64,000 nt of DNA from Cenococcum geophilum (lineage: Eukaryota). A program made the position numbers and the translations under genes. The DNA lies in contig CP158635.1 in assembly GCA_050273025.1 (NCBI GenBank), positions 10,416,001 through 10,480,000 on the forward strand, written 5' to 3'. Position 1 is the stretch's first letter. Every line of letters begins with the position of its first letter. This document shows positions 4,002-52,431 of this stretch, in pieces. The notes beneath the pieces are model-generated. The model had not been told where the DNA came from, searched no databases, and saw only the letters and a list, made by a program, of their open reading frames with translations.

Positions 4002-7000
4002 TTGTACTTAAAGCGTCCGTAATATTGTTATAGGATAGTTTCTTACGTATAGTCCTTAGTCCTTTTAGCTTATCCTAGTTAAAGCTTATTTAGGGTAAAT
4101 AGCCTATTTCTAGTTTAATAGGGGCAAATCTAATAGAGTTATGGGGTAAGGTTGCTTAGGTATAGTTTATTAGAGGTAGTAGTTTAGCCTAGTTATCTTA
4201 GAAGTAGTTAATAAAGGGCTAAAGTCTCTAGTCTAAGTATTAATTTATAATCTCCGTTTAACCGTTTATTTAGGGGTAGTATACTATAGAAAGCTTTAGC
4301 CTAATGCCTAGGATTTAAGTAAACTTGTTTTAAAAAGCTAATATAAACTACGGCCTATAATTAGATATAATAGTATCTAGTAGTCCGTAGATTTAGTAGA
4401 CGTAATAAATATATATTTAGGCCGCCTCTTTAGTATTAATATTCTTATAATAGGGAATTAAAAATAGGCGCTTACTAAAGCGGTTAACTAAAATTATAAC
4501 TATATCGTATCCGTTACGGTCTATAGGTAACTTATAAAAATCTATAGAGACGTGCTACTAGGGGCGATTAAGTATTAGGAGGGGTTTTAATAGTCCTAGG
4601 TCTTGTCTCTTAGGATTATAAACCTATAGTAGTTATTACAGTTTTATATATAACGGTTAATATCTATAACTATTCCGGGCTAGTAGTAACGGTTACTAAT
4701 AATCTTATAGGTCTTATTTTTTCTAGGGTAAGCCGTAGAGACCTAGGTATGTGCTTTGGTAATAAGCTAGGTTTATAAGTTCTATTCTTTTACTATTACT
4801 AGCCGTTTATTACGGCACTGCAGAACTTGGCAGAACTTCGCACCGGCAAGTTGCCACAGATTGCCGCATATTGCGGTCACGTGACGCGAAGATCTTATAA
4901 AACATCGAACGGCGCTGCTCTTCTTCTCCTTTCCTTTCCCTAGCTTTAGATTCTCGTTTATAGACAATCCAATCGTATAGGCTTGCGCGTCCCTTTTGCC
5001 GTGCTTATGCCTTGATTAACTAAGTCGCTAACGCTATTCCTAGTACTTAAGCAGTCTATTTTTAAGGGACTATAAGCTAATAATGTCCTTTACCTTTTCG
5101 CGATACTTCTATAGAGAAGGGCCTATACGGTTTACTTATAGTAATTTATTAATAAGGTTAATAGGACATATCTTAACGCTTAAAGGTTTAGTGCTTAGTT
5201 CTTCCCGTATTTAAGGGTTAAGGTGCTTTAGTTATAGTAACGTCTAGGTTTATAATAAACTCTTTACAGCTATCTAGTTATTTAGGTCCTATTTACGCCT
5301 TATAAAAGCGTTTATATAGTTAGTGGCGCCTAGCCTATATATAATTAGGAAATTAAACTAAAATAGGATATCTACCTAGCGCGCCTACTAGGCTCTAAAG
5401 GCTTTTATTATTATAAAGTATTCTAAGGCCTTATAATCTAAAACTACCTTAATCGGCTTAGGGGTCCCCTCTAGCTATATACGTTCGTGCTAAAAGCTAA
5501 AAATAATAGCTAGCATTTCTTTATTATAGATATAGTAGTTTAGCTTAGTATTTATTATAGTTTTTAAATAGTATATAATAGGATGCTATTCTCCATCCGG
5601 TTGCTTCTAGGAAAAAATTCTAGCTATTATACTATTTAAGGCATTAGTTTCTAGTATTAAGGGCCGTTTTAGGTTAAAATAAATAAGTAAGGGAGCTAAT
5701 ACTAGCCGTTTTTTAAGCTTATTAAAGGCCTACCTATATATAGCGTTAAAGTAGAAGGGCTGGTTTTTTTTGTAAGACGGTTAAGAGGCTAGGTAATTTT
5801 ACTATAGTTCTTAATAAAGTGTTAGTAGAAGTTATAAAAACCTAAAAATAATTATACCCCCTTTACGGTCCATAGGGGTACTTACTCGTTAATTATAGCT
5901 ATTTTCTTTAGGTTAGTTTTAATTCTATTTATACTAATAATAAAACTTAGGTACTTTATACACTTAATACTAAACTCCAACTTTTTAATATTAACCTAAA
6001 AGCTAGCCTTATAGAGCTATTATAAAACTTTATAGACATGCTTCTTATATTCTAGCTTATTCTTAAAGTAGATTATAATATTATTTAAATAGGCCGTATA
6101 GAAGTTGTTAAGGTAGTTAAAGAGTATATTATTTATAAACCGCTAGTATATAGCTAGTCCATTAATTAGTTAAAAAGGAAGTACCTTATATTTATATATT
6201 TAGTAATAGGTCTAAAATATAGTAAAACTCTTAAACTTAGGGTTTATTTTAATTTAATAAAAGGCCTAGTAGATATTAAGCTTTATAAAAACCTTAACTC
6301 TACTTATTTAGGCTAGAGTCTTATTAAGTAGGGAAAGCGGATAGCGGTTCTTGCGGGTTATATTATTTAACTTATAGTAGTTAATATAAAAGCAGAGTCC
6401 TCTATTTAGCTTTTTAATAAAGAGAATAGGTAAGGCAAAAGGGGCTTAGCTAGGCTTAATAAAGCCCTTATTTAGGTTATTAATAAGATACTACTTTATA
6501 GCTTATAATTTAATAATAAACTACTTATAAAGGGGGCTAAAGCTAAGGGTTTTTTCCTTACCCTACTTAATTTTAATCTTATAGTTATATAGTTAGTAAG
6601 GTAGAAGTATATTAGACGCTACTTTAGAGAATATATTCTTAAATTTCTAGTATTAATAGGGCAGCTTTTATTCTACTAGTTCCTTATCTATAAGCTTACT
6701 TTCCTTTTCCTTAATTGTTTAATTAATTTTATATAAGCCTGTTATAAAGACAACGGTATTAGGCTAAACTAAGTTCTGGTAGAATCCTATAGCACTAATA
6801 TAGTAAATATTAACTAGTAGGAGGTCCGCTAGTTTCCTTATAGCCGTTTTCTAGACCGTATTTTATAATTTAGAGTTAATAATCTTTCTTAGCTCCTATT
6901 CTATCTTCTATAGGTTATCTCTCTAATTTATTAGTTTAGTATAACGTCTAATATCCCTTACTGTCCTCTATAGCTATATAGGGGGCTTTTTTAGGTTACT

Positions 7001-9209
7001 ATTAACTTTCTAGGTCTTTAATGCGGGTAATAAAATATAAGTAGTTTAGGGCGATGTAGTATATAAATCTGTTATAAATTAAGCTATATATTTTTCTTAA
7101 AGGCCTAATCCCTATATATAGTATCGGCTTAGTAAATAGTATTAATTTAGGGCTATATAAGGTTTTTTATTATAATGCTAGTTTCTTTTATAAAGAAAGG
7201 GGTTAGGGGTAAGGTTTAGGTTAGATAAGCCGTCTACTTTATATATTAAGCTATAAGCCTAAATAGGCTAGCTATTTTTGCCTTAAGATTATATTATAGC
7301 TACCTAGGTCCGTAATAAGGAAGGGGATATTATATTACCTTTGTCTATTAACACAGAGGTAAATCTATAAGATAGTTATAGTAGGTAGCCCTATCTGCCC
7401 ATTATACCTATAAATAGGAATTAGTTTAGGTAGTTCTTTAATAGGTATATTTAAAAGGTTAGCTAGCTTTATATTATACTAGGTATCTATTAAGGTAAAG
7501 GCATTTACTTTAAAGTTAGCTAAAGTAGAGGTTAAAACTTAGTATTTATTACGGAATAAAGTATAAGGGATAGTATAGCTTCTTCTACTAACTAGCTAAC
7601 TTAGATTAATATCTAATATATTAATCCCTTTTAACTCTAAAGAGGAGTCTTTCTTTAGGGTTTCTTTTTTTCTAACTTTATACTATTTTTCTAGATTAAT
7701 AAAACCTTATCCGCTTTTATATTTATTAGGCAATTTTTTATATAGTAGCCTTTTTAACCATAAGAGAAGTAAGCTTCTTAATTACTAAAGGCCTATATAT
7801 AGGGGTTGCTATATATAGGCCGAGCATTCACTAGACCTATAGTAGGACTAGCTGTATAGCTAGCTACTAAATTAGTAATAGGCTATACGGGTAGTACTAT
7901 AGGGGTTGCTAATTATGCTAGGGCATTATAGGCCGTTTTTATATTACTTATAGTCTAATTTAAAGGGTTTCTAGCTTTATACTATTTAGCACATGCCTTA
8001 ATTTAGTAGAGGCCTTAGTTAATAGCTAAGCACTAGTCTATAAGTTCCTTTAGCGTCTATATAATAGTAAAAATTAGTAATACGGCTTGCTGCAGGTTTA
8101 GGGTAAGCTTATTAAATAGGTCTAGTATTAGATCTTCCTAAGGAATTTAAGCTTAGCCGGCTAGGTATAAAAAGCGGGTCTAAAAGGCTAAGAATATCTC
8201 TATCGTTTTTATATTTAGGCTTTTATAATTAAGTTAGGCGTTCTATACTTTAAAAGGGTCTTTATAAATAGAAGATATATAAATAATTATTTCTTCTTTA
8301 AAGAGGAAGGGATCTACTAAGTCCTATACGTATTACGGATATAGGTGCGTTTATATATCCCTACTAGTACGGCCAAAAACGTAAGCTATTTTAGCCTAAG
8401 TAGTAGAGAAGTAGTCTGTATTAACTTTAAGATTATTTTATAATTAAAGCTTCCAATTATTAAATATAAGGTTAGTTCCATCTATAAGCAATAGGGGGTC
8501 TATAACTTTTATAGACTATAATAATACTAATACTATATAATAGGCTAGGGCCTTAAAGACTATAGTAAGTCTCTAGGTGTTTAATAACTCTTTACTAGGT
8601 ATAGGGGTTTTTCTAGCTTTAAGCAGCTTTTAAAGTTGTTTAATTTTGGTATTAGCTGCTATAAGCTCTACCTAAGAGTTTAAGTTAGCTACTATTTTGC
8701 TATTAGAGGTATTTAAGGGTCTTATAGCTACTTTCCCGGCCGCTGTATTTCTTAATATAGTAGTATAGTTATTAGGGTAACTTCTGATAGAATTCTATAG
8801 GGGTTTTAATCTATACATATTTAATAGGTCTTATTATTCTTTTCTATTCTTTAGGTCTAATTTTATATTCTGTTTTAGTTTATAGTCCGTAAATATATTT
8901 AAGTTCCTTCTTAAAAAGAAAGCGTAGTTAAGCTTTAAATAATATTAGCAACTTAGTTAGTTAAGGCATAAGTATAGTAAAAGAAACGCGCAAGCCTATA
9001 TAATTAGTAGTCTATAAATAAGGATCTAAAGCTAAAGAAAGAAAAGGAGACAGAAGATAGCGCCGCTTAACGTTATATATAATCCTCTAGTTATATAATA
9101 GTAATTATTTTAAAATATATAAAACTGTCTACGATTATTTGCTACAATCTACTAATATTTACTAGCTATAATCTACTAGTTTCTACCAGTTTCTACTAGC
9201 GCCGTAATA
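4002..9209 (-). mobile_element. Ty3/Gypsy family X, copy 1 (5' LTR, gag, PR, RT, RH, part of IN), RIP-inactivated
   Basis: 5' LTR ~8943-9209 matches the LTRs at 13562-13795 and 50551-50793. Minus-strand RT 'TAYLNNIIIY' (YLDD) at ~6070-6100. Integrase 'LSIVYYP*INGQTEIINQYL' (de-RIP LSTAYHPQTDGQTE) at ~4240-4300. Confidence 0.9.
4808..5033 (+). mobile_element. Solo LTR related to family X, inserted antisense in the pol of X copy 1
   Basis: tattacggc...aagtcgctaacg; its 3' half matches the X LTR. TSD ccgtt (4803-4807) / ctatt (5034-5038) differs only by RIP-type transitions. Confidence 0.8.
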
Positions 9210-15970: not shown

Positions 15971-15972
15971 TA

Positions 15973-16739
15973 CAGTGGGGTGTCATAAGTGTCCGTGCCC
16001 AGACCACACCAAATGTGATATTTTTTGCTAAATTACTATATAGCAACCACAAAATTAATTCTAGAGCTTTAAAATAGTTATAAGGCCTATTACTATATAA
16101 AATCTAGCTATTATAACTTTTTTAAAGTCTTATATTTTACAGTTCTTTATTAAAAGCCCTGATGTTTTACCGATTTTTTACTAAACTTACTATATTTAGC
16201 ATATATTTTCTACTACTAAGGATTAAAAATATTTCTTAAAATTCTAATATTTTATAGAGATTTGCTTTTACTAAGACACTCTATATTTAAAATTTTGTTT
16301 AAAATATATATAAAATTATTGTAGGGTTATAAAGTCAAAAAAAGTAGGTAAAAAATGAAATTCCTCATACAAAATAAAAAATTTTAACTTTATAACGTTA
16401 TAATAAACTTTTATACTTTTAAAATAATATTCTAAATATACTAAGTTACAATAAATATAAATCTTTATGCGATATTAAATTTTTTTCAAAAAAATTAATA
16501 TCTAGTAGTAGAAAATATATATTAAATATTATAGATCTTATAAGGGAACTAATAGGATTTCTAAAAGAGTTATAGGTTTTAAACCCAAAAAAAGGCTTTA
16601 ATAGCTAGATTTAATATATAATATAAACTTCAGCTATTTTTTAAAGCTTTAAAATTATTTATATGGTTGTTATATATAATTTAATGGGGTGGGTTATCTT
16701 GAAAATTCGCTTAGCACGGACACTTATGACACCCAACTG
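15973..16739. mobile_element. Non-autonomous Tc1/mariner-type element (767 bp), fold-back-like
   Basis: 26-bp TIR cagtggggtgtcataagtgtccgtgc / gcacggacacttatgacacccaactg, TA TSD, plus further internal inverted blocks. Confidence 0.9.
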
Positions 16740-19700
16740 TATAATCTGCAAAAATACAAATAAAAGATTTATTAATTTATTTAAACTAAGTAATGCGAGT
16801 GTTGGTTACATAAGGGGATATTACGTAGCTATGGTTCGTAGATAGTATAATAATTATTATTCTATATATCTTAATAAGGGAGGGCGAGGAGCTTAAGGCT
16901 CCTTGCTACGCTAGTGCCGCGGCGATATATAACGGCAACTTGCTATATATAATGGCAATGTGCCTTATATAGTAACCACTTACCTTTATTCCTAATACTA
17001 GCAACTTTTCTTTTATAGTTGCTATCTATATATATATACCGCTTAACTAGCGGAATAAATATCAGTCCTTTTTACTTACTATTGCTATTATAATATAAGT
17101 CTCGCTGCCCCAAAATTTGCCTTTTAGCACGTAGTGCTTTCTTACTTAGGAGTTATAGGTAGATATCTTGTTTAAAGGGCCGCTAAGGCGCTAGTAGTAA
17201 GCGAGCTAATAGCGATTTTCTATCCCGGGGATAGAAAATCCTAATTAGCTAGGTTAAGTTAGGGTTTATAGAATGTTATACCCCCCCCTCTAAAAAAGTT
17301 TTAGCAAGAGAATCTAACTAATTAGATAACTTTAACCGCTGGTTAAAGTTCCTAAATATTTTAAGACCTTATATAACTAAGAAATTTCTAGGGACTCCCT
17401 TTTAACCTAACCTTTAACTTATATACGTAGAGTATTTATGTTAATAAATGTCTCTAGTGCCTTATTTGGGTTTGCCTTCGTTATTATATCTACCGGGTTA
17501 TCTTAGCTATTAATCTATTAAATCTTAAAAAGTTTTTAACGCTTATAGGATTGCCGAAGTGCTATAATATTAATTATAAGGCGCTTCTTCTTTATAGTAC
17601 TAAGCTTAACTAAATACTTATAGAGGGAATATAAGTTAGTGTATACAATTATAGGGATAATAGGAAGTTTAAGTCGATCTATAATTATCTTTAGGGTAGT
17701 TCCAATTGTAATTACTATATTAACTTTGCTAACTATTCTATATATCTCTAACGCTAAAACACTTTAGGTAACGCGTTTGCTCGTAGTTAAGCTCTAATAG
17801 ATAAAATTGCTATAGATTGTGAAGTTATTCTCTCTAGTAAATTTATTCGCGATAATAATTTTATATCCTAATTAGGAACTAAAATCTTTGTTATTTATAA
17901 ACGATCTATTAATAAATATAAAGAGCTTAGCAGTAGGAAGATTAATAGGCACGTAGAGTAGTCCCTGATTAAGATAGTTTATTTACTAAAAAAGACATTT
18001 ATTTAGGGTAAGAACGTCATCCTTAGTTAGTTTTTAGTATTAGGTGGCAATGGAGAGATTAAATAAAGCCTTAGGTTAATAAATAGAAGCAATATAAGCT
18101 TTGTAAGCGTATTGCTCTATATATCCTTACTTTAGGGAATTAACGTTAATAACGTTAATCTTTTTACCTTAACCCTTCTGGCGCAAAGCAATAAAATCCT
18201 TATTTAGGGAGAGGATGTATTTATTAAAAAGTAATAGTATTATTAAATTAAGCTTTTCCTTTAGCTTTGCTATAAGATTTACCTTTACTAGCTTATCCTC
18301 TTTAAGAGCTAAGAATTAGTTATCTCCTAAGATAATTATATTATTAGTTTATATACTAACGATTCTAAATAGGGTTCCCGTAGTTATAATAAGGAAGTAG
18401 GGATTAAATATAGAAGTAGTTATTAAAAGCTTCTCTTTATAGTGCTTACTGTAGGTAGCCTACTAATAGGTTTCTACCTCTGCAATTCTATATAATGGCT
18501 TAAGTATAACTATAATTATATCTTTAGGATATTGGTAACGAATTTGCTCTAAAAGGTATGTTAATATTAAGCGCTAAAGGTATATCTCTAATTAGGTGTA
18601 GGCCTAAGTAATATCTCGTAAATAGACCGCTATTTTATTCTTTATTAAGGAGGGAGCTAATATAATAATAACTTATTAACTAGCTCGTTAAATTATAGGG
18701 GATTATGTAAGAATTATCTCCTTATTATTGTCGTTGTAACCTTAGATAATAAGCCTTAATTTCTTAAATAGGGCATTAGTAGCCTTACCCTTAATCTTAT
18801 TAACTATCCTTAACTTAAAGATATAAACTTTATTAAACTTAATAGGGTTATACTTCTTAAATTTAAAGACTCCTCTTATAATAAGACTGTTGATCTCCTG
18901 CTTATTAGATACTTAGAAAGGAGCTTCTAAAGTTATAATATAACCTTCCTTTTAGAGCTGTTTTGCGAGCTTAAAGTTAACCTTCTCTTTAGCTATTATA
19001 AAGGCCATTAATAACTTAACTCTGCTCTTAATGGCAGCAATAAATTATTCTTTAAAATTAATAAGATATTAGCGATTTTATAATCCCTTTAGGCGACCTC
19101 TACTGCGTTATGGTTATAGCGTATCTACTATAATTATTTTAGGATTGTAGTTGCCTTCTAGAGTACGTTAATTGTGGTTCTCCTTTAGGGTATCTTTTAG
19201 GGCATCCTGTAAAGGCTTAGATTTATTATTTTTGTAGTAAGGCTTAATAATATTTAAATGGAATTAAGTGGGTTTATAAGGCATTTAAATAGTATAAGTT
19301 TAATTATTAATTGCGATGAGTTAATATAGGCCTAACTATTCTCCCTTTTTATGCTATACGCGTACCTTAAACTAGAGTAGCAGATTAAGCGTAGTTAAGG
19401 TGTTTAGGCTATTTTTTATTCCTAGTGCGTTATTAACCTAGTATATAGCGTAGAGATATCGCACCTCCTTTATTGCCTTATAAATAGCCTTAGCTTATTA
19501 TATAATAGAGGGAGATAGTAAAAAATTATTAGTTATTTAAGGGTAGGCGCTAAAGACTAGTAATATAGGTATAAGTCTATCTAGGCTAGCGGAATTGTTA
19601 ATAGCTTTAACAGCTATTTATAAGGTAAGTTCTTTACTAGCATTCTTTAGTTTTAAAGAGATAATCTTATATACGCGGCGTAATGGCGTATAATATTGTT

Positions 19701-20623
19701 ATAAGAGGCTAGCCTAACCAAAATATATAATTATCTAATTGACAGTATTACTGGTAAGTAGAAGGTAAGTTAAAGGTACGTTAAAGATAAGTAAAAGGTA
19801 AAATAAGTTTTTATATATTAAAGGACAAATACTTCTAACTACTTCTATTTAGAGACTAATTGCTAGTTCTTCTCTAGAGGGGAATTAGCTTCCTATATAT
19901 TCCTTTTAAAACGCTAGTAAAACCTTTTGCCTCTAACCTATTTAACTGTGTTTTCTAGAATATAGATGGGATATAGATAAAACCTCCTACCGTTTTATTA
20001 GATATATACCTTCTAGGGGATTCTATTACAATTACCTCCCCTTTTAGGGTTTTAGTTCTTTAAGACTTCGCCTCTACTAAGCTTTTATAGAGTTCTAGCT
20101 AAAACCACTAGGGAAACCCTTAGTAGAAAGGTACTTTATAATGCGGCTTATTACTAGCTTTTTACTAGCGCGGAACTTTACTTTATCTTCTATTTCTCTA
20201 CTCTTCTCCTACCCTAGCTCCTTATAGTGCTTTTATAATGGGATTTTAATAATAGTAATAAAAATTTGGTGGGATTTACCTCTCTAATTTTGGGAATTTG
20301 TTATAAATAGATCTAGAGGTTGTTCGGTATAACGCGTTAACTAACTACTATCCCTATTTACCTAAATGGGCTTTAATAATAACGTCTTTTATTTTAATTT
20401 CTTTCTGTTTATAAATTATTGTCTCTCCCTTATCCTTTTATTAATAATATTATTTATCTCGTTCTTAAATAGGCTGTTTTTATTATATCTTACCTTTTAG
20501 CTTCTATATCTCTAGCCGTACTTCTATTACTGCCTTATTATCTTTTTTAAACGCGTTTATAAGTAATAGGATCTCTACCTTATCTCTTATAACAATGCTA
20601 ACTTCTTAGAGTATTCTCTTATA

Positions 20624-21453
20624 ATGGCTTATAGTCCTTCTACATATCCCTAAACCGGCGGTAGTGTTATTCCTCTTTTAGTGACGCCCTAGATAGCGTC
20701 TATTACTTCTACGGCAATTTCCCTAAAATGCTATTATTGCTATATTTATGCTCTTATATAGGATCCTTTTTACATTTATAAGATGCCTTACTCTAGTAAA
20801 AATAAATCTAAGTGCTCTTATTGCCGTAGTAGGAGAAAGACCTATATCCTAGTATTTCCTATTCTATCCTATTCTAGATTTTGCTAATTATACTAGATCC
20901 CCGCTGTCTATATATATAAAACTTATAGGCTTTAACGCGCTATTTAAGATTTCCGCTAACATCCTAATAGTAATAGGTAAGGATAGAAGGTATCTTCCCT
21001 TACTTATAGACTCTTTAATTTAATAAGGGTTTCTACTACTATGGAGATATAATAATCTCGGATATATAGTATCTAGGAGTGTATATGCAAACAGCTTATC
21101 CTTATTAATAATAATATTTATACTCTTACGCGGGCTACTTTAGCTAGGTAAGTTTCTCTAGTAACTTACTTAGGAACTATACTAACTCCTTTAGCCAATG
21201 TTTTTTTAATCCTTACTTAGATGCTAATTTGGAACTTAGGGATATTAAAGATAGCAATAAACGTTAAGATAAACGTTCTCCTTGCTAGTCTTCCGCCTAT
21301 ACTAGTTCTTTTAGTACCTATTATTCTAAGAAGAATATTAGTAAAAGTGCTAATACTTCTAGGGATAGAGAAGCCAATAATACCGTTAATAATAATATTA
21401 AGATAGAAGAGGAGACTCCTATTACTACTACTAGTATTTAAGTTATTACCTAA
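20624..21453 (+). pseudogene. Three-exon antisense accessory gene in the Gypsy C 3' region; ~245 aa, Zn2Cys6-like N-terminus, low-complexity C-terminus
   Basis: Exons 20624-20851, 20897-21147 and 21195-21453. Introns 20852-20896 (GTATTT..GCTAAT..TAG) and 21148-21194 (GTAAGT..ACTAAC..TAG). Exon 1 reads 'KCYYCYIYALI*DPFYIYKMPYSSKNKSKCSYCRSRRKTYIL'. Confidence 0.7.
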
Positions 21454-21720: not shown

Positions 21721-24700
21721 TGTATAATTACAGCACCTATTATACCAAACGCGTGCTTACGCGTTTACGCGTTCAGTGCACCAACCACTTACTTACGCGT
21801 CTAGTGCACTTATAAAGCACTAACTAATTAGGGGGGAGGTGCATCAGTATATAGACCACGTAGTCTGCTTTATATAATCAACAGTCACCATCTAAACAAG
21901 CATACAATACTACATGTATTTCGTGCCCGTGGATACAACTCACTCGTGCTATTAAGTTAGTACAAATACTAATCAGTAAGCGCGCACAGATTAGCAATTA
22001 CTTAATACCTCCCCCCAAGCGATACTCGACAGCAACCACCCGTTTAGACTCCTAGTATAACCTACTAGAAGGTCAGAAGTCAGGGATTACGGACTTATCT
22101 CCAACTCTATATACTTATTTAAGTCTTAGTATGGTTTACCGGAAGTATAATAGACGCAAATACAGACCTATACGGAACCCCCTACCCTTAAACCTCAAAC
22201 CCCTATCCCTACTACACCCTCTTTTAATACCTCCGACGTCTTTTTAGACCCCTTATAGAGACCCCCTACCCCTTTACAAACTACTACGGACCTGTTAAGA
22301 CCCCTTACGGACACCCTTACCCTTCTATAAACCGTAACGGATATTAACCGCCTTTATAGACCACTACAAGACCTCTTCCACCTATTACGTACTACACTAC
22401 ACTATATAATATAGCAGACCTAAGGAAGCAAGTTAATAAAGGCCAGGAAAAGTAAAGGCAGGGAGCCGACCTTATGTCTATACCTAACGTTAACAACTAC
22501 ATTAAATTTAAAGTTCTTAAATATGAATATTTTAAGCTTATAAATGTTAACCTATGGGAGTAATACTAGGAAGACTTCGCGGACTTTACGGAAGCTATCT
22601 TTAAAGTATACAACCCTACTACTATCCGTAACCTACGGACCCTCTTATATAACTAAGGTGTATGGGTTAAAAGGAATAAATAAGTTACTGTTGCATAGTC
22701 CTTATATAACATAATATATAAAAAGGACTAAATAGAATGGATTAAAGAGGAAATCCTAGACCAGTTCTAAGAAACTAAGGAACTCTTTACTTCTTCTAAA
22801 CTTAATATAATTGCTAGCCTTATACCTAACCCACTTAACTAAATTCGTCCTATAAACCTAAGTAGTTTTAGAATTAATCTTATGGGCTAAAGTACACCTA
22901 GTACTTAAGTTATAGACCGCAATACCCCCGTAAACCAAAATACAGACTAAATTACCCCTATTGTTCAAGTCACAGATCCGCAAGCCATATATTTATAAAC
23001 TACAAATCTATAAGTTATAGATCCGCAACCTACCTAATTAAAGACCTACGGCAAGGAGCTAGCTAACCTAGCTAAGCTCTATACCGATAAATCTAAGTAC
23101 AGCGGCAAAAATAATAACTTTAACTTTAAACTAACTATCTTTACGGACCTCTGCCAAAAGGCTAACATTCCTAAATAAGAGTTTAGCCAAGCCTACTCTA
23201 CTATGCTGCGCGGCCTAGCACTTAACTACTACTACACTAACCTTAAGAGTAACCCCCTTGGTGTTCCTTTTAATAAGCTATATAAAGCTATACGTAACTA
23301 CTTTAAAGGACCGGAATATAAGTGTAATATCCTTACCTAATAGAATGCGACCAAGCTACGGACCGTAATAGATAAGAATACTAAAAAATCGACCATAGAG
23401 TGCCTGTAAATCCTTATTAAAGACCTCCACTACCTATAGCACGGTTTTAATATTAAGCTTTAAACGGACGACTTTCTGCATAATAAACTTATTACGGCTT
23501 ACCAGGAAGTAGAGCCCTGCAAGTACACCTACTATAAGCCTATAGATACCTTAGCTGGCCTTATTAATAATCTACGCTCCTCTATTATAACGTATAAAGT
23601 CTTAAACCTACCAGGTAGCACTTAAGCCTTTATTACGGATATTTAATATCCACAAACAGACTTAGACGTCTACTTTACGGACCGCCGCTACCGCTAGCAG
23701 CACCCATACCAACTAAGTCCTACCTATAACCCCCATAGCAACCCCTATACAAAAACATACCCCCGCAGATAAACCAGCTAGAAGTGCTTCGTGTGCGGTA
23801 AGGAAGGATATTAGTCTATAAGGTATACCCAGGAAGAACGTAATAAGTCTAGGAAGAGACTTAATAGCCGTATTAACCAGTTTATTTTAGAATACAAAGG
23901 AGAGGAAGTAGAAGAGCCCCCTAATAAGTTAATAGAAGCCCTTATAATTGACTTTAACTTAGACGCTTAAGAATAAGAGACCTTAAAGACATTCCTAACC
24001 ACTTTTGGACCTTTTACGGACAGCTAAGCCTTTAATATTATAACCATATTAGCCGACCATTCCTTTATACACTTAGTTACGCCTAAAAACCATTCCATAA
24101 GCACCCCCATTATAGACGTTATAAATCACAAGCAGGACCTATTTATATATATCACCACAAAACGCTATACCCCTAAGGAATTCTACAGTGTTATAATTAA
24201 CACAGGCGCCTTTAAGAAGTCTACTGTAGGCTATGGACAATACCTCGTATATAGGACTACCGCAAATAATAATACGGATATTAATATTACGCAAACTAGG
24301 GCCGTAAACGTCCAATTCAGCATTAACTTAACTGCATTAATTAGATCAGTTATAGTTAAGACCCTAATTAGCCTAGTTAACTTCCATATAGTAAAAACAG
24401 ACACCCCTTTCTTACTTTGCCTTGCGGATATAGACAGGTTATAGGTTTACTACAACAATATTATAGATACCTTAATCGGCCCTATAACTACCCCAGGAAG
24501 CAAGCATATTACCCTACTAATTATATAACAATTTAAACACCCGTTCCTTATATAGGGAGAGACTTTACAGACCTACATTTAGGAATCTTTCAACTATAAC
24601 CTGTGCTACCTTACCAGTACGGAAATCCACCGTCTGCACCGCCGTTTCGGCTACCTGTTAGCCAAAAAGCTATATAGAGTCCTTAAACGCTCTGGACATA

Positions 24701-27700
24701 ACAACGTTAATAAGAAGGCAGTTAATTACCTAACCAAATACTGCTCCTTTTGCTAGAAATATAGACGTTCCCTAGGCCAATTTAAGTTCACCCTTTATAA
24801 GGACCTTAACTTTAACCACTTAGTGTATATAGACATTATATATATTAACGGTAGCCTAGTATTACACATAATTAATAAGGCAACCCGCTACTAAGCCGCC
24901 CGTTAGTTACAAAATATATCCACAAAGCACACTTAGGATATTTTACAGACTTGCTAAATTAACACGTACGTTGGACCTCCTAAGTATATTACCCACGACG
25001 CCAATAGGAACTTTATTAGCAAGGAATTCCAGTAGTATGCTACGGCCATGGCTATATTAACAAAAGCTGTTCTAGTTAAGGCGTATTAGTCCGTTAGGCT
25101 TATTAAGCGAGCTTACCTAGCTCTACGGAGAGCTTATTAGATTATTACGGACGAGTATAAGGATATCTAAAAGGAACTAGCTTTACAGATAGCCGTAAAA
25201 GCTGTTAATAACACCGCTAGCCCTAACGGACTAGTACCTACCCTTTTAGTTTACGGAGCCTACCTAAGGATAAGTAACCTAGGCCCCCCTACCCCGTCTA
25301 TTACGGAATAAGCAGCTATAATACGGAAGGTAATAGCTGAAATAGTCAAATTACGGGCTAAATAAACTATTAATAACGCCCTATACTACCGTAACGGACC
25401 TAATACAACCTTAGTATATAACCTCCCGCTTAACTCTAAAGTCCTTATATGGCGTGAAAGCGGTAGTTAAAATGGACCTTACTATCTACTAGCCGTAGAA
25501 AACGAGATGTGCTACGTATAGCTTCCTAGCGGGCTAACTAGCTTTAAAAGCACGTCCGTAAAACCCTACTTTCGGCCCAAAAACACCCATGACGTTAAGC
25601 TAGATAAACTAGAAGCAACCACTAAACTAGATGAACTAGAAACGACTACTGAATTAAATAAACTAGAGGCACCTTTACCTATCCTAGAGGTCCCTTAGAA
25701 ACCTACTAAACCTACTAAACCTGCCGTAAAGTATAGCCGAGGACGCCCCTATAAGAATCCTGTAACGGAGAACTACTTAACCTCTATAGGCATATCCGTA
25801 AAGCAATCTCCGCCTACGGATATATCAGTTCTAGTATAGGAAACCCCTTTTACAGACTTATGGCGTAAAGAGATCAACGGACTACTTAAAAAGGGTATCT
25901 TTATGATTATAACGGAGAGAGACGTTCCGCAAGGCGTCCGTATATTTAACTTACGCTTTATTAATAAGATTAAGCACCCTAGTACTAATAAAGCCTTTAA
26001 GAAATTAAGGCTTATTATATAAGCTTATAACAACTAGGGAAAGGACCTAGTCCTTACGCAATCGCCTACAATTTAATGGGTCAGTTAACGGATTATACTC
26101 GTACTTACGCCTAGACTATAGTAAACTAAATTCGTAGCCCTTTACTTACGGGACATCTTATAAGCCTATATATAGTCTAATACCTACCTAAATAGGGATA
26201 TCTTTATATAACTACCCTATAAGCTTAACCTATAACCAGAAATAATTTTACGGGTTATAAAATCTCTTTATGGAGTACCAGAAGCCAAAAACCATTGGTT
26301 TAAGACATACTACTAGCACTACGTTAGTAAACTTAAAATGGAATAGTTAACCTACAACCCCTGCCTCCTATACAGCCTATTAAACGGCCTTAGTATTATT
26401 AGACTCCAAATAGATAATACCCTCTTCTTAGCAGACCGGATATTTGCGGACGCTAAAGAGACTAAACTATAAGAAGCTAAGTTCCTAGCAAAGCCGCGAG
26501 AGCAGTTAATTAAGTAGACTCTAATTAAGTTTAACGGAGGCTTAATTATATAAAAGGGCAACTTAATCTAGCTAACCTAGGAACGCTAAGCTTAAAACCT
26601 AAAGCTTATTATAGCAAAGCCTACGGACCTCACCAATTCCCACAGAGAGACCCGTAAGACTATAAATACAAAAGACTAATACGCTGCACAGCGTGCAAGA
26701 GGCGCCTATATTGCCACAGTCTACTAACCTAAATCTGCCTACAACTTATCCTTTACGGCCTAGGTAGTAAATCCGTAAAAAGAAAATATTAAGCAGCTTA
26801 ATAAGCGTATTTAGTGGCAAATTAACAATACAGCAAGGGGACTTACTTTTGTACCACTAGACCTAAGTTTCCTTAGCTTACTAGCATTTACGGACGCCTC
26901 CTTTACCAATAATAAAGACCTATTATCACAAATCGGCTTTATAATTGTACTTACGGACCGTAATTAGGACGCAAATATACTATACTAGTCTTTAATTAAG
27001 TGCAAACAAGTAACCCGTAGTATACTAGCTTCTAAACTATATACACTAGCTTATGGATTTAATATAGCAGCCGTAATTAAATTAACAGTCTAGAAGATTT
27101 TATAACTAGAGTAGTTACCCCTAGTTTTATGCACTAATTTAAAGTCCCTTTATAACTGCCTAGTTAAACTAGGTACAATATAAGAGAAGAGGCTTATAGT
27201 CGACCTAATATGCTTACGTTAGGCCTATAAATAACATAAGATTATGGAGGTTAAATAGATTAGCAGCAGAGACAACCTAGCGGACGCTATAACTAAGGCA
27301 AAGCTATATTAAGCCCTTAAAACCCTAATTAACACAAATAAGCTTAACCTAAAAGTTATAGAATAGGTAGAACGGGACTAACGGAGTACCTATAGTACGC
27401 CTACGGCCCGTTAAAAGGCCGTACGGCTCATTATACGGCCTATTCTATGGACCGTAAGCTATCAGGTGAAAAAACGGTGGAAAGCTGTAATAAAACTTGG
27501 TGGACTTACGTAACCTGCCAAATTCTACCATATTCTGCCACAGTAGTTAAATTAACTAATCACGATTTTCCATACCAGGCATGGAAAATCGCCATTAGCT
27601 CGCTTAGCACTAGCGCCTTAGCGGCCCTTAAAATCTAACTTACTGCCCATTAAAAGGCCATACGGTTTATTTTACGGACCGTAAGCAGGACTTACGGCCA

Positions 27701-28087
27701 GCTTAAGGTACCGTTTAAAAGGCAGCCTAGACAGCACCTTAGGGGAGATTTTCTATATATTTTCCTTTATATTCTATAGTTTTATTAAAGCAATTACGGA
27801 GGCTATATACAGGTGGTTTCATTTTTTAAGTACTGCCAGTATATAATTACAGCACCTGTTATACCAAACGCGTGCTTACGCGTTTACGCGTTCAGTACAC
27901 TAACCACTTACTTACGCGTCTGGTGCACTTATAAAGCACTAACTAATTAGGGGGGAGGTGCATTAGTATATAGACTACGTAGTCTGCTTTATATAATCGA
28001 CAGTCACCATCTAAACAAGCATACGATACTATATGTATTTCGTGCCCATAGATACAACTCACTTATGCTATTAAGTTAGTATAAACA
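21721..28087 (+). mobile_element. Ty1/Copia family B, full-length and RIP-inactivated
   Basis: 248-bp LTRs 21721-21968 and 27840-28087. TSD gtatc. Single gag-pol at ~22131-27381 with CCHC 'CFVCGKEGY*S', PR 'INTGA', RT 'QSPTI', 'RDIL*AY' and 'LQIDNTL' (QTDD-type), and RH 'FTDASF' and 'ADAITK'. Confidence 0.95.
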
Positions 28088-34196: not shown

Positions 34197-37100
34197 TAAT
34201 TATATCTTTAACTCTTTTATTTTTTTATAGGGTTTTATATAGCAACCTCTTTAATAATTCCCCCGTAGTAATTATTTCTAAAGGTCTTATAAAGTTAGAT
34301 GGACTAGCCGTAGCTTCCTAGTCTACTCTTTTATAAGTAGAGGGAATATGCTCCTCTAAGGAGACTCTCTAAGCCTTCTATGGTAAGGGCGTTGCTTTAT
34401 AGGGTATAGGAGTATAGTCCGTTATTATCAATTAATAGCTATATGTTCCTAACGGATTATAAGTAATTAGAATTATAAGAGGCCAGCTTAACCGGAACGT
34501 ATAATTATCTAATTAATAGTATTACTGGTAAGTAGAAGGTAAGTTAAAGGTATATTAAAGGTAAGTAGAAGGTAGAATAAGTTTTTACGTATTAAAGGAT
34601 AAATGCTTTTAACTACTTCTATTTAGAGACTAATTGCTAGTTCTTCTCTAGAGGGGAACCAGCTTCCTATATATTCCTTTTAAGACGCTAGTAAAACCTT
34701 TTACCCTTAACCTATCTAACTATATCTTCTAGAATATAGATGGGATATAGATAAAACCTTTTACTGTCTTATCGGATATATACCTTACAGGGGATTCTAT
34801 TACAATTATTCTACTTTTTTAATACTATTATATGCCTTAACGGGGACTTTCTTAACCTTAATTACTATTGCCTTTATCTATTATTAGAACTCTATAAATA
34901 AGAAGTTCTTTTCTATATTATGGATAATTTAATTAGGGGGTCCTAAATAGACATTAATTTAGTATAATTAAAGGGTATTCTATACGTTTCTAGCTAATAT
35001 ATCTTTTAAAAAACGCGCGGCTTAGAAGGAGGTTAAGAAGTTAATAACTTAGAGTACTGGCTTGCCGCTAAGATATATAACGTTAATAATAATACAGAAG
35101 TTAAAGTTATAGTTATTTTTAAGGGTAAACTTAAATCGGCCAGGGGACTTTTAGTTTATTTAGTAGTAATAGTAGTATTTTATAAGATGCTTAATTGCTT
35201 TAACCTTAACTTTATAGCCTACTTATTAAAGAACCCTAAGTAATTAATGAATGGATAGGTGGCCAAAACGATAGTATAGTTGGCGTAATTCTGACTTAGT
35301 TAAGTGGCTCTAAGTAATACTTTTTTTAGTTAATAAAGGAGTAACTAGGGGTAACCCTACTTGCGTATAACGGGCACCTAATTATCTCCCTAAATAAGTA
35401 TATTTTTAAGGTTATTAAGCCTAACGCCTAATTTATCTATATCTTTAATATAAAATAAAAACGGAGTGTTTATAGGAATAATATGGAAGGTAATATACCC
35501 TAAGGGGGTTTAGACCCTAATTATACTAAAAGAGGTTGTAATACCCTTACTAAAACGAATTATGTGTTGGCCTGCTGTTGAATAGTTAATCTAAATAGAG
35601 CTATTAAGCTATTAAAGGGCTTAAACTTAAGGTTCTCCTACTATAGATACTCTTACGGCTTTAGTATCTAGTATAATACTATAGAAGACGTTTACCGAGT
35701 ATTTATTATTAAAAGAGAACGTAGAGCTCTTCTTTAGCTTATTAAAGATATTTAACTTTGTGATAGAATGGAGCGTAGATTGGTTATTAAGAATAGTAAC
35801 GGTTTATATGCTATCTACCTTACTATACTTAGTAAAGTATTAGTTAGGAAAGTAGTTCTTAATTTCCATATCTATAAGGAGCTGTTTAGTCTCATTAACC
35901 TTACCCTTAAGATCTTTTACGCCTTTATATTAAACTAGGAAGCTTTAAAAGTAGGCCGTAGTAACCTTATAATTTTTAATATTTCTTATACTCTAACGGA
36001 ACTTATTATATACCTCCTTTTACTTATTAAGGGAGTGTCTAGTTAACTAGTAATTTGGCTTCTTATAAATATAGTACTTTTTTTAGCAATTACTTTAAAA
36101 TAAACCTCTATAAGGACCTCTATAATTACCTTATAGTTAATATTAATTATACTCTCTTCTATATTCCCTACTACGGCCACTATATATTTAATTAGTCTAG
36201 TTATAATTATATTAGTTAGGAACGCTTAGTTAGGTAGGGCTTTTAGTATAAAACTATCAAAATTCTTATATTTATATTATAGTACCTACGGCAGAGCGTA
36301 GCTTGGTATATACTCCTTTAAATATATCTATAGGTTTATACAGCGCTAAATTGCACTTAGGAACGCTATAGTAGGCTAAGATAACCTAGTCCCTTAAGCT
36401 GTTCTTATTTTAGTAAGTTTTAGTAAGGCTATATTAGATTTTCTAAAGTTTATTAAAGAGTAGTTAAAGGCACTCTAAATAAGTCTTTATTGGGTTAAAA
36501 GCAATAACTCTCTAGAATATAGTCTCTCGCTATTTAGATATATAAAGTTGGCGATTCTTATTAGTCTTAAAGTGGGCTCTAGTAAGCTAAAGCATTATAT
36601 TAAAGCTATAGTTTTTACCCGTAATATAGTCGTAATAAAATGTTACTACCTGTCCCTTTAATATAATAGAGAAAGCGTGGTAGTACTAATAGCATTAAAT
36701 TTTAACCTTATTGCAATAGTTATAAAAGACCTGTAGTTTTACTCTAAGCATATTATATAGTTCTCCTTTAAACTTCTTCTCTTCGTCTAAATATACCTTT
36801 ATTAAATTCGTAACTTCTTATAGTAGAGACTTACCGATTAGCTGGGATGGAGGGGGTAAAGGTAGTAAAGGGGGTGGTAGAAGAGCACCTTTAGGTAGGA
36901 GAGTACCTCCTAGTAGGAGAGTACCTCTAGGTAGGGGATTAGTATTCTAGGGGTTTTAATACAAATTAAAGTTGCCTTTTAAAGAATATAGGTTAGTTTT
37001 AGGTTTCTATAGTTAACGTATAATCTTAGCTTCCGTCTATACTAGTTCTTTTATACTAATAATAACGGCCTAAATATTACTAGTAATTGGGTTACCGTTC

Positions 37101-37656: not shown

Positions 37657-40408
37657 AAGACAGCTCCCTTTAGCACGAGTAGCACTAGTACAGTGGCTTA
37701 TTTCTTCTTAGTGGAATACCTAGCTGCTCTATAGTATAACAGTAAAGTTAACCACTAATTAGTGTTGGTTACATAAGGGGATATCACGTAGCTACGGTTC
37801 GTAAATAGTATAATGATTATTATTCTATATATCTTAATAAGGGAGGGCGAGGAGCTTAAGGCTCCTCGCCACGCTAGTGCCGCGGCGATATATAACGGCA
37901 ACTTGCCGTACGTAACGGCAACTTACTATACGTGACGGCAATATGCCTTATATGGTGACCACTTGCCTTTATTCCCAACAGCGAGGCTGTTTAGCTTAGT
38001 ATAAAAATAATATAGGTTTTAATAGGATATAATTTAGGGCTCTAGAACTAGTCCTAAGATACCTATTTTAAGTAAGGTCCCTTTTTTAAGAACTTTTTAT
38101 TTATGGTATAACCAATATATACTATGGGAAAGACAATATCGCAACCTTTTTAAAAGGTAAGTAGTAGTAATACTAAAATTAGCGTAGGTCTATCTTATTA
38201 TATTAATTCTTATTACTTAGAATTTAAGAACTTTAGTCTATATAATAGGGACATAGTTAGGGGCGTAAATCTCTATTAGTAAACTATAAATGTAACTATT
38301 AAAGGTATTTTTAAAGTATCCTTAATAAAGTTAAAAGTTAAAGGAAAAGGGAAAAAATTATAATAGAAAATAGTGCCTAATATATCTATCTAATTATAGA
38401 GTTATAGGCTCGGCCTTAAACCTAATAAGGAGTAAGAGTAGTAATTAAATAATAACCTCTTATACCCTGGCTACAGTTATTCTAAGACGCTAAGGCACTT
38501 TCGGGCTTTAAAGGCCTTAATTAGATTATTATTATATATATATATCTTATCTTCCTAAGTGTTTTCGCTATTAGAATACCCTTTTTACTTAACTAAATAC
38601 TAGACTTTCCTATATCTACTAACTTAGTAGACGCGCTTTTTAACTAACCATTTAATAGTAAACTGGTTATCTTCTATATTTATAGTAGTAAGTAGGCTAA
38701 TATCTTAAATAGCTTATATAGAGGTTAATTCTCCAATATTATCCTTATTATATTTAGCTGGTAATAGTAGGCTACTAATCCGCAGATTAGAAGTAGAGGT
38801 ATGTCTTAAGTATATGTTATAAGGGGCTATACTAAAATTAATATACCTAGGGCTAAGTAGATTAGCACTATTAAGAATAACTAGAGTATTTAGAGTGCTA
38901 TACTCCTACTTCCTAATCTCTATATATTTTAAGCTTAGAGTAGTATTAGTTAAGTCCTTTAGTTTTACGCCGTAAAATAAAGCTTTAATAGTTAAATAGT
39001 CCTCTATATTTCTTATGTATATAAGATAATCTATACCTTGGTTAGACGCCATAATCTTAGCCGTTAGTTATTAATATATACGCAATGTTAAAGTTATATT
39101 GGAATCTTTTTAATTTAGAGTAAGCGTTCTATCTTTATTAGGGTTTGTAAGGTCTACTATATTAATTATATTATATTTAGATATTATACTACTTTGGGCC
39201 ACTACTTAAGGGAGAAGTTTAGGGTTAATTTTCTTAAGTATCTTACTATATATAGATGGCGGCGGGGTATTAGTATTAGAAAAGCTTTTATTTTTAGTTT
39301 AGCTACTATTTATATAACTGCCGAAATCTAATATTAAACGGCTTAAGGGTGTTATAGATTTATTAAATAGGTATTAGCTAATGCTTTTTATTATCTTATT
39401 AATGAAACCGTATCCTACTTTAGCTAGAGCTTTATTACTTATGCTTAATTTCTTCTTATAGCCGGACCTCTACCTTTTAACCTTAGCCGGCTAAATTTCC
39501 GCCTTATAGTCTTCTTTTAATCTTTTTAGTAATTTTAGTTCTTTAATAAAATTAAGGCAATAAATATCTTAAAGATAGAATTTTAGCTTTCTAACTAAAT
39601 TAAATATCGCTCTATATTATAAACTTAGGTAAAGGTAATTTTAGAGGTTTGTTTTTATCTAGGATATCTATATACCTATAGATATGCCTTTTCTATATAG
39701 CCGATTTTAGGAAATTAATATATCCGCAATATAGCTGGCGTAGTACTACTAAGGTAAAAAGGATAGTAGCTAGTAGTAGTAAGTACCCTATTATATATAA
39801 GAGGGTCATATTAAATAGAAAGTGTCTTACGGTCGTCTAAACACGCTTAGTAGTAGTTTCTCTATTATACTTCCCTAAAAATTTACTAGTTATATTAAAA
39901 GCATAGCTTAAAAAAGCCATTATAACTCTTCTTATAGTAGTTATATATATGCCTCTAATTATAAGTGGTCTTTGTCTTTATATCGCTAAGTAGAGATTAA
40001 GCTATTTTCTACTAGCCTATTAAGTTAGAGTAATAGTACTTCTTTAGCTCTAAGCTTGGTTAAAACTCTACTTTAGTACCCTTTTATTATAGCGTAACTA
40101 TATTATAGAGAGCGCTAAGACCTATAGGACTTTGTAAAGTAGCGATCTTAAAAAAAAAACAGATATAAGGCGGTCCTATTTAGGTATAAAAAATTAAGTT
40201 TAGTTAAATATAGTCTGGTAGTAGTATAGTAAGGTATTATCCTTACTATTAATATCTAGTCTATATAGCTGTACCTTTTACTACTTACGGAGTTTTTTAG
40301 TAGTTAGTTTACGTTTCTATATATAAAGCTCCTTTTAATAGGTTATAGAGTTTACGTCCTTCTTCCCTTTTAAAGCGGCAATATCCTCCTCTATATTAAT
40401 ATATTTTA

Positions 40409-50550: not shown

Positions 50551-52431
50551 TATTACGGCGCTGGTGGAAACTAGTAGATTATAGCGGACAGTTATAGATA
50601 GTCGTAGATAGTTTTATATAGTTCTAGATAGTTGCCGTTATATAACTAGAGGATTATATATAACGTTAAGCGGCGCTACCCTCCGTCTCCTTTTCTTTCT
50701 TTAGCTTTAGATCCTTGTTTATAGACTACTAATTATATAGGCTTACGCGTCCCTCTTACTGTACTCGTGCCTTAATTAACTAAGTCGCTAATATTATTTA
50801 AAGCTTAACTACCCTTTCTTCTTAAGAAGGAACTTAAATATATTTATAGACTATAAACTAGAATAGAATACAGAATTAGACCTAAAGAATATTACTAAAA
50901 CTAGAAGAATAGAAAAGAATAATAAGACCTATAGAATACGTATAGATTAAAACCCCTATAAAATCCTACTAGAAGTTACCCTAATAACTATACTACGATG
51001 CTAAGAAATATAGCAGCCGGCAAAGCAGCTATAGGACTCTTAAATACCTCTAATAGTAAGACAGCAACTAACTTAAACTCCTAGGTGGAGCTTATAGCAG
51101 CTAATGCCGAAATTAAATAACTTTAAGAGCTGCTTAAAGCTAAAGAACCCCCTACGCCTAGTAAGGAATTATTAGATACCTAAAGACTTACTATAGTCCT
51201 TAAGGCTCTAGCCTAATATATAATATTAGTATTATTGCGGTCTATAAAGGTTGCGGACCCCCTATTCTTATAAATAGAACCAACCCTATATTTAATAATT
51301 AGAAGCTTTAATTATAGGATAAGCTTAAAGTTAATATAGACTACTTCCCTACTACTTAAGCTAAAATGGCCTATGTCTTTAGCCGTACCGGCGGGGATAT
51401 ATAAACGCACCTACGTCCGCAGTACGTATAGGACTTAGCAGATCTCTTCCTCTCTAAAAAAGAGATAATTATCTACCTATCTTCTATTTATAAGGACCCC
51501 TTTAAAATATAAAACTCCTAACTTAATTATAAAAGCCTAAATATAAAAACAATAGAGACCTTCTTAGCCTTTTAGACCCGCTTTTTGCACCTAGCCGGCC
51601 AGACTTAAATTCCTTAGAAAGATTTAATGCCAGACCTATTTAACAAGCTTACCCTAAACCTACAGCAAGCCGTACTACTAGTTTTTACTACTATATAAAC
51701 GTTAAAGCAGCTTATAGATTAGTGCTTAGCTATTAACTAAGGCCTCCGCTAAATTAAGGTATACGCTAAATAGTATAAAGCTAGAAACCCTTTAAATTAG
51801 ACTATAAGTAATATAAGAACGGCCTATAATGCCCTAGTATAATTAGTAACCCCTATAGTACCACCTATATAGCCTACTGCCAATTTAGTAGCTAGCTATG
51901 CGGCTAGTCCTACTATAGGTTTAGTAAATACTCGGCCTATATATAGCAACCCCTATATATAGGCCCTTAGTAATTAAGAAGCTTACTTCTCTTATAGTTA
52001 GAAAGGTTACTATATAAAGGATTACCTAATAAATATAAAAGCGGATAAGGTTCTGTTAATCTAGGAGGATAGTATAAAGTTAGAAAAAGAGGAACCCTAG
52101 AGGAAGACTCCTCTTTAGAGTTAAAAGGGATTAATATATTAGACGTTAATCTAGGTTAACTAATTAGTAAAAAAAGCTATACTATCCCTTATACTTTATT
52201 CCGTAATAAATACTAAGTTTTAACCTCTACTTTAGCTAACTCTAAAGTAAATGTTTTTACCTTAATAGATACCTAGTATACTATAAAACTAGCTAACTTT
52301 CTAAATATACCTATTAAAGAACTACCTAAACTAATTCCTATTTGTGGGTATAATGGGCGGATAAGGCCACCTATTACAACTATCTTATAGATTTACCTCT
52401 GTGTTAATAGATAAAGGTAGTATAATATCCC
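50551..52431 (+). mobile_element. Gypsy family X, copy 2 (5' LTR, gag, start of PR), interrupted by Copia B'
   Basis: LTR 50551-50793. The internal sequence is the reverse complement of 8942 back to ~7325. Confidence 0.9.

Follow-up and report, generated by a model that had tools for sequence, protein, structure and literature searches.

Why do LTR retrotransposons of different superfamilies carry the same short palindromes behind their coding regions? The question is raised by a 64,000-nt stretch of the Cenococcum geophilum genome (contig C1:10416001-10480000, hereafter the window), which consists of nested LTR retrotransposons. Raised TpA/ApT in AT-rich DNA is a mark of fungal repeat-induced point mutation (RIP), and across the whole AT-rich window this ratio was 1.3-2.4. 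A sequence-only reading had described two palindromic units, referred to here as unit 1 and unit 2, and had proposed that they form, with an adjoining CCAAT box, a cis-acting module exchanged between LTR superfamilies and kept under selection. All seven palindromes assigned to Copia A, Copia B, Gypsy D and Gypsy E were recovered at their positions, each between the end of pol and the 3′ LTR (Table 1), and the units were then followed through the 178 Mb genome (7 contigs).

The pol of Copia A ends near 17379; the element holds several nested insertions and its frame is broken by RIP stops. A Pfam search with the window copy gave no match, but a less mutated relative (L268) matched RVT_2 (E 1.5e-9), with the integrase preceding the reverse transcriptase. 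Window Copia B gave a single weak integrase match, Gypsy D matched RVT_1, RT_RNaseH and SH3_Tf2-1, and Gypsy E matched RVT_1 and RT_RNaseH. The description of the host elements as otherwise unrelated does not hold for the pair Copia A and Copia B, which are both Copia elements, share a GalEa-type hairpin word behind the 5′ LTR and have pol proteins that are 33-40% identical.

Table 1. Features of the window that bear on the two units (positions within the window; RIP form, CCAAT box altered by repeat-induced point mutation).
Feature	Position	Strand	Remarks
Copia A (GalEa-type) host element	16800-37980	-	LTRs 16800-16997 and 37762-37980; target duplication GCGAG
Copia A, tail after unit 1	17171-17203	-	Common to Copia B; homologous to the stretch after the box in the Gypsy c4-type LTR
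Copia A unit 1, first CCAAT box	17204-17213	+	RIP form; pentamer 17206-17210; purines before, 3-bp spacer after
Copia A unit 1, palindrome	17214-17240	.	13+1+13, centre 17227, C..G allele
Copia A unit 1, second (inverted) CCAAT box	17241-17250	-	Pentamer 17244-17248
Copia A unit 2, CCAAT box	17309-17327	+	Pentamer 17318-17322, RIP form; conserved upstream bases; 5-bp spacer
Copia A unit 2, palindrome	17328-17350	.	11+1+11, centre 17339; core CCG-N-CGG
Copia B	21721-28087		Target duplication GTATC; no unit 2
Copia B 3′ UTR, unit 1 with both boxes and tail	27554-27633	+	Palindrome 27564-27590; G..C allele
Gypsy D 3′ UTR, unit 1 then unit 2	40792-40927	-	Unit 1 40885-40911, unit 2 40804-40826; order and orientation reversed relative to Copia A
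Second Copia B-family element, 3′ end without unit 1	52431-53061	-	Gap of about 190 bp, with a short direct repeat on either side
Gypsy E 3′ UTR, unit 2 then unit 1	53356-53534	-	Unit 2 53498-53520, unit 1 53373-53399; order as in Copia A

Unit 1 is a 13+1+13 palindrome flanked by two inward-facing CCAAT boxes, as seen in a little-mutated copy (L137: GACCAATCAG GATTTTCCATGCC G GGCATGGAAAATC GCTATTGGCT), and its dyad base lies 17 bp from either CCAAT (3+13+1). The sequence-only reading had recognized the CCAAT flank but placed it on one side, whereas the box is present on both. Its view that ctaatt(a/g)g is a RIPped CCAAT box was borne out by the 126 metagenome matches listed, which were found by the palindrome alone with flanks and boxes left out of the search pattern: 93 had an intact left box and 33 a left box in RIP form, whereas the right box was intact in 84, in RIP form in 40 and otherwise altered in 2. 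All intact boxes (93 left, 84 right) were preceded by two purines (−2, −1) and had a further purine at +2, and the base at +1 was C, G or A, except for T in 40 left boxes, which we read as RIP of C. The first box of Copia A unit 1 kept its C at 17207 in 4 of 30 close copies and is intact in less mutated relatives, and the second kept its G at 17247 in 3 of 30 copies. Together with its tail the unit is 84% identical between Copia A (17171-17257) and Copia B (27633-27547), and the Copia A tail also resembles two LTRs (z 4.3 and 5.8).

Conservation around unit 1 was assessed in 59 context groups, which over-split families and are not independent lineages. Of 217 unit 1 anchors found, 67 had flanks that were too short, and the groups were built from the other 150, with 29 near-identical Copia A copies set aside. 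The CCAAT box was in place on the left in 59 and on the right in 58 of the 59 groups. RIP-blind mirror complementarity was seen in 58-59 groups along the arms, dropped to 13, 0 and 1 of 59 in the unpaired 3-bp spacers (mirror distances 14-16) and returned to 58-59 of 59 in the pentamers (mirror distances 17-21). The spacers of the two boxes differ from each other, and conservation to the left of the left box falls off after two purines.

Unit 2 has one CCAAT box and an 11+1+11 palindrome. It had been reconstructed as TTTGACC arms around a 3-base loop, but the least mutated copies read AACTTCGACCG-N-CGGTCGAAGTT, with 11-bp arms and one free central base, as in a little-mutated copy (L255: CCAATCAGAC AACTTCGACCG G CGGTCGAAGTT). 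The central base (n = 84) was C in 39, G in 39 and T in 6, mixed within groups, and the box was in place in 28 of 30 context groups. Here too the dyad base lies 17 bp from CCAAT (5+11+1), and the +17 spacing is therefore common to two palindromes of unrelated sequence; by eye, units 1 and 2 show no likeness beyond the CCAAT box that would make them relatives.

Both units proved abundant. RIP-tolerant patterns placed unit 1 at 3236 positions in the whole genome against 2 for a reversed control, and unit 2 at 2984 against 6 for its control; a 191-bp stretch of Copia A alone had at least 40 copies at 93% identity or more, with both units in all 30 that were fetched. By flank clustering, about 15 lineages carry either unit: five Copia (three GalEa-like with 39-55% protein identity, two canonical), seven Gypsy (24-61% protein identity), two gag-only and one with a tyrosine recombinase (YR), all identity values being lowered by RIP, since even copies within one family are only 65-82% identical. 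The YR carrier is 4.8 kb long with split direct repeats and an RVT_1 match (E 3.6e-10); its tyrosine recombinase was identified through homologues, as the downstream frame had no direct match in Pfam, PDB or PHROGs and 6 of its 8 homologues match PF00589 below the cut-off of that family. When 41 unit 1 places were classified by hand in genome order (C1, 0.13-2.16 Mb), 20 fell in Copia 3′ regions, 11 in Gypsy 3′ regions, 4 in Gypsy-type LTRs, 2 in the tyrosine-recombinase element and 4 in gag-only elements (2 of them tentative). All 41 lay in 3′ regions or LTRs, and none stood free. As a rule each element has one copy of each unit; both orientations occur among the carriers, and unit 2 runs from CCAAT toward the pol end, i.e., antisense, in 6 of 8 lineages.

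The exact unit 1 pattern was also found with the same architecture at 124 or more metagenome loci. Of the 124 listed, 111 have an alignment of 200 bp or more with loci of this genome (median 78%), and we therefore do not take them as breadth beyond one lineage. One divergent metagenome copy (L193) keeps the palindrome and one box while the rest of its sequence is different. A search of viral contigs for unit 2 gave no match.

Blocks carrying the units have moved between Copia and Gypsy. Two loci, L035 and L214, have the pol end of Copia A (RIP-blind, 88% and 97% identical with the window copy, against 58% with Gypsy E), followed by an inter-unit spacer closer to Gypsy E (94% and 90%) than to window Copia A (61% and 60%). 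Beyond unit 1, L035 continues to match Gypsy E (89% vs. 47%), whereas L214 matches Copia A (84% vs. 57%). These mosaics show that blocks crossed the boundary between the two superfamilies with breakpoints at the units, in agreement with the exchange that had been proposed. Furthermore, Copia A and Gypsy c3 have the last pol codons and the stop in common along with the unit 2 block.

The window copies of both units sit in 3′ UTRs, not LTRs. Elsewhere, a canonical Copia family (RVT_2 match, E 5e-48) has unit 2 inside both LTRs (about 180 bp; all 5 pairs compared), in the order CCAAT, palindrome, TATA and with 55 bp between CCAAT and TATA; for human NF-Y, the available text of PMC3730095 gives TATA at +50. 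Unit 1 lies inside both LTRs (229 bp) of Gypsy family c4, there with no clear TATA at a fixed distance, and the related Gypsy c3 and c14 LTRs have a single box and the same tail with the palindrome absent. The LTR tail is homologous to the stretch after unit 1 in 10 of 14 contexts tested (z 3.3-19), the exceptions being Gypsy D, E, c2 and one gag-only family. The single-box LTRs that carry the tail, together with the homology in 10 of 14 contexts, favor an LTR as the probable source of unit 1 and its tail. We infer that unit 1 passed from LTR to UTR; unit 2 may have done so as well, though the stretch common to its LTR and UTR copies is only about 65 bp. TATA is absent from most 3′ UTR copies, although the unit 2 version of Gypsy c14 keeps an A/T-rich stretch at the position of the Copia LTR TATA, which most others do not.

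Covariation of the unit 1 arms, which had been advanced as evidence of selection, was confirmed genome-wide as a fact (1340 G..C, about 1890 C..G by subtraction, 5+1 discordant), but not as such evidence. It affects 1 of 13 arm pairs in unit 1 and 0 of 11 in unit 2, compensatory changes spread along the stem being found in neither; in 13 of the 23 context groups with several copies, both unit 1 alleles are present although the flanks specific to the family stay the same, and within families the free central base flips. According to the accessible part of PMC8604942, template switching between inverted arms homogenizes the arms and inverts spacers without selection. As polymerase template switching of this kind yields the same pattern, the covariation is no proof of selection. 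Variation limited to one arm pair speaks for read-out of the sequence, or for two alleles in circulation, rather than for an RNA stem.

Not every element in these families has the module. Gypsy C contains neither unit, and the junction of the second Copia B-family element of the window (Table 1) recurs in at least 40 copies at 89-92%, with 27 of 30 fetched loci having no unit within 500 bp of it; near the window copy, the units belong to the inserted Gypsy E. A subfamily of this size without the module indicates that it is not an essential packaging signal, and the packaging or dimerization function that had been suggested is accordingly disfavored. Protection of the module from RIP was not seen, C being kept at 13% and 20% in the units and at 24-28% elsewhere in what is a biased sample.

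From sequence and geometry, we consider it rather probable that units 1 and 2 are two different LTR-type promoter/enhancer modules for the host CCAAT complex and a dimeric factor, which spread by recombination. The host CCAAT-binding complex (HapB/C/E, NF-Y) would bind each box, cover about 13 bp downstream and thereby position a dimeric factor on the dyad; on unit 2, with its everted CCG-N-CGG, a Zn2Cys6-type factor is the simplest to propose. Complex and dimer may keep the element’s chromatin open, activate transcription from the neighboring LTR, or act antisense. The modules may have moved by nested insertion and homology-dependent recombination or by reverse-transcriptase template switching, the latter presumably keeping the arms perfect and flipping the central base. 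Such a module would help the element without being required. The host genome contains one intact NF-YA gene (PF02045) and one gene with a Hap4-like domain.

The suggested pairing of a dimer site with a CCAAT-complex site fits the geometry of both units, whose dyads each lie at +17. In the Aspergillus CBC:HapX tripartite site, as described in the text available for PMC7144946, the CBC consensus is CCAATVR, the complex covers 13 bp downstream of CCAAT and a HapX dimer occupies the next 7 bp. The unit 1 boxes (93 + 84 intact in the 126 metagenome matches listed) fit this consensus, and the center of the reported HapX stretch is by our arithmetic +17, matching both dyads. The units differ in having G/C-rich dyads with long perfect arms on either side. 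The same text gives the CBC:HapX motif as RWT 12 bp after CSAAT and a TKAN half-site 11-23 nt downstream; by eye, the least mutated copies have neither RWT 12 bp after the box nor a TKAN half-site, and the likeness to the HapX site is therefore only geometric. Host promoters were also considered as an origin of the units. Outside the module the unit 2 core was not enriched (46 of 50 places were unit 2 places, 4 were others, and the control gave 4) and only one lone unit 1 half-site was found; this origin thus receives no support, and no host promoter points to the binder. Long invariant arms exceed the usual read-out of a host factor, and recent exchange alone could explain them. We also compared unit 1 with the motif of the ER-stress element and rejected the likeness: the deciding base was T in 150 of 150 anchors, found with a pattern that asked for T and allowed one mismatch, and T as well in all listed genome-pattern matches where C was allowed.

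The same observations can be read without a regulatory function. The units could be relics, LTR fragments captured once that spread as the sole homology between families and whose palindromes are maintained by template switching. The large subfamily in which the module is dispensable, the mosaic flanks that break at the units and the lack of any sign of RIP protection in the biased sample would all agree with this, and arm homogenization and spacer inversion need no selection (PMC8604942, accessible part). We nevertheless regard it as unlikely, given that about 15 lineages preserve the box-dyad spacing and the box consensus amid turnover of the adjoining bases, that the L193 metagenome copy retains palindrome and one box in different sequence, and that all 41 places classified in genome order are confined to 3′ regions and LTRs. 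An independent MITE, or a tyrosine-recombinase recombination site, that inserts into or shuffles the elements would account for the thousands of short palindromic copies, the carrier that encodes a tyrosine recombinase and the crossovers mapping to the units. However, recombination sites of this type have a directional spacer, and the units are symmetric at the center; moreover, no free-standing copy was met among the 41, module boundaries vary between families, and flanking duplications are not in excess (30 of 59 vs. 24.4 ± 3.2 shuffled). The MITE reading is thus largely refuted, and we find this explanation as a whole scarcely credible.

A hairpin in RNA or cDNA, serving packaging, dimerization or strand transfer and common to many elements because they borrow particles, would suit the strong predicted folds (z −3.6 to −5.7 for unit 1, −1.7 to −2.5 for unit 2), the presence in gag-only non-autonomous elements, the finding that retroelements are the sole carriers among the 41 places in genome order, and the center flips, which show that the arms pair at some stage. 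Yet compensation is confined to the single pair noted above, pairing runs to a one-base center that no hairpin can close, no in-register pairing is seen in the spacers next to the boxes, both orientations occur, the mobile Copia B subfamily does without it, and an Rfam search with 3 loci gave no match; we hold it to be quite unlikely. Alternatively, the dyads may be targets of an element-encoded protein (brtn-like six-cysteine or VANC-like anti-silencing), a site that other families then exploited. The palindromes are element-specific, the everted CGG pair of unit 2 is a known Zn2Cys6 arrangement (PMC10954478, available text), and Gypsy C has a RIP-damaged antisense frame at 20783 with six-cysteine-like spacing, which resembles the brtn gene of Boty elements as the available text of PMC8365987 presents it. 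Against this, Gypsy C itself has neither unit, its frame has no Pfam or homologue match and no link to the dyads, no six-cysteine frame occurs within 1.5 kb of 234 anchors, where RIP limits detection, and no antisense six-cysteine frame adjoining the units was convincing. RIP-damaged extra NF-YA-like copies were considered as an element-borne partner and discarded, sitting in a repeat of more than 10 kb with neither units nor pol. We rate this explanation very unlikely. A broader scheme seems to us quite improbable as well: dyads traded as a regulatory commons among Copia, Gypsy, gag-only and YR elements would recruit the CCAAT complex and an element-encoded dimer (e.g., brtn-like six-cysteine) to open silenced chromatin, with antisense transcription from unit 2 tuning copy number.

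A literature search, run outside subscription journals and the supplements of PMC5445492, found no published description of the module. It is new that the two units have the +17 geometry in common, that unit 2 occupies a TATA-linked position in an LTR, that a tyrosine-recombinase element is among the carriers, that one subfamily lacks the module, and that the covariation can be accounted for by mutation. If recruitment of the host CCAAT complex by traded modules is correct, the exchange of a cassette across Copia, Gypsy and YR elements would mean that unrelated elements of one genome share and trade control parts besides competing. A switch common to about 3000 copies is a possible reason why many families would burst together in a repeat-inflated, RIP-active genome, and the constant +17 spacing would offer direct bait for a new partner of the fungal CCAAT-binding complex.

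Several known systems resemble the units in part. VANDAL elements with their VANC proteins are reportedly DNA transposons with short, family-specific motifs and a known protein; we saw no such host, motif or protein with the units. The VANC anti-silencing motifs of Arabidopsis VANDAL transposons, in the text available for PMC5735166, are likewise non-coding, specific to their elements and potentially able to recruit a trans factor. The GalEa Conserved Hairpin Site, according to the available text of PMC5445492, is a conserved non-coding palindrome common to families of one species; it is 9 bp long, GalEa-specific and takes the place of the primer site after the 5′ LTR. Copia A and Copia B carry it. 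We excluded this class for the units, which lie at the 3′ end or in U3 and occur also in Gypsy, the hairpin-type word being separate from them.

The RM boxes of Sireviruses, in the source text of PMC2829016, are CGG/CCG-core palindromes located upstream of the LTR TATA and after pol and conserved between divergent elements; such a core in such a position is found in unit 2 only. That text describes many copies per element within one plant Copia genus and no exchange across superfamilies, and the word CCAAT has 0 occurrences in it. The units are not of this class, being present as a rule in one copy each per element and hosted by fungal Copia, Gypsy and YR elements. The NF-Y modules of LTR12/ERV-9, MLT1 and MER57 (PMC12065363, PMC3730095; available text) likewise have CCAAT boxes in LTRs, a partner at precise spacing and TATA about 50 bp downstream, and NF-Y is reported to bind such retroviral LTR modules in closed chromatin. 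They stay in the LTR of their own family, with partners known from ChIP, whereas the fungal units are found also in the 3′ UTRs of unrelated superfamilies, and their partner is a putative dimer.

Among relatives of Copia A, a GalEa-type Copia element of the window, were short LTR elements (2.3-2.8 kb) that encode gag only and carry unit 1, the longer of the two palindromic units, and in one of these the LTRs were 100% identical. In the Copia A-like elements at L134 and L139, two copies of unit 1, one per allele, were found 102 bp apart. Immediately left of Copia A lies a very AT-rich imperfect inverted repeat (770 bp, 65%; window 15971-16741), and a tandem array of 2 kb with a period of ~68 bp adjoins a copy of Copia B, the second GalEa-type element (L276:2260-4365).

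RIP-damaged genes resembling NF-YA (HapB), a subunit of the host CCAAT-binding complex, were recovered within a repeat that exceeds 10 kb in length and is present in multiple copies. In the five of six copies examined, identity to the host domain was 40-49%, and the repeats that enclose these five were 85-93% identical to each other. Further frames that look like cargo, along with a solo Gypsy LTR, also lie in this repeat, which is possibly a large cargo-carrying mobile element.

The words TCACGTGA, which we take to be E-box-like, and CTTGGC are repeated close to the units and in several LTRs (L238-L264, L235 and L268 LTRs), a recurrence that suggests additional host factor sites.

Coordinates of elements, words and frames
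Feature	Location	Strand
Additional palindrome, 13-bp arms, 6-base centre	window 7790-7821 and 51934-51965	
GalEa hairpin-site word, directly 3' of Copia A 5' LTR	window 37750-37761	
GalEa hairpin-site word, directly 3' of Copia B 5' LTR	window about 21970-21978	
Gag-only LTR elements, Copia A relatives, with unit 1	L268:7497-9999; L271:3017-5328 and 6430-8941; L057:208-2968	
NF-YA (HapB)-like gene copies, RIP-damaged, n=6 (L318-L325)	G000: C7:4783895, C5:10238576, C1:7592674, C4:19595002, C6:11953957, C6:7815363	
DIRS/Ngaro-type element, 4.8 kb	L050, L052 (from G000:C1:1197259 and 1273537 onward), L085	
Antisense frame, six-cysteine-like spacing, Gypsy C 3' region	window 20783-21300	+
Gypsy C LTRs	window 19699-20034 and 34473-34808	

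For the antisense frame of Gypsy C, a window element with neither unit, neither a Pfam match nor a homologue was found. The DIRS/Ngaro-type element contains RT, a tyrosine recombinase and split direct repeats. The additional palindrome sits in a repeat family with two window copies (7324-9165 and 52431-50571, 88%).
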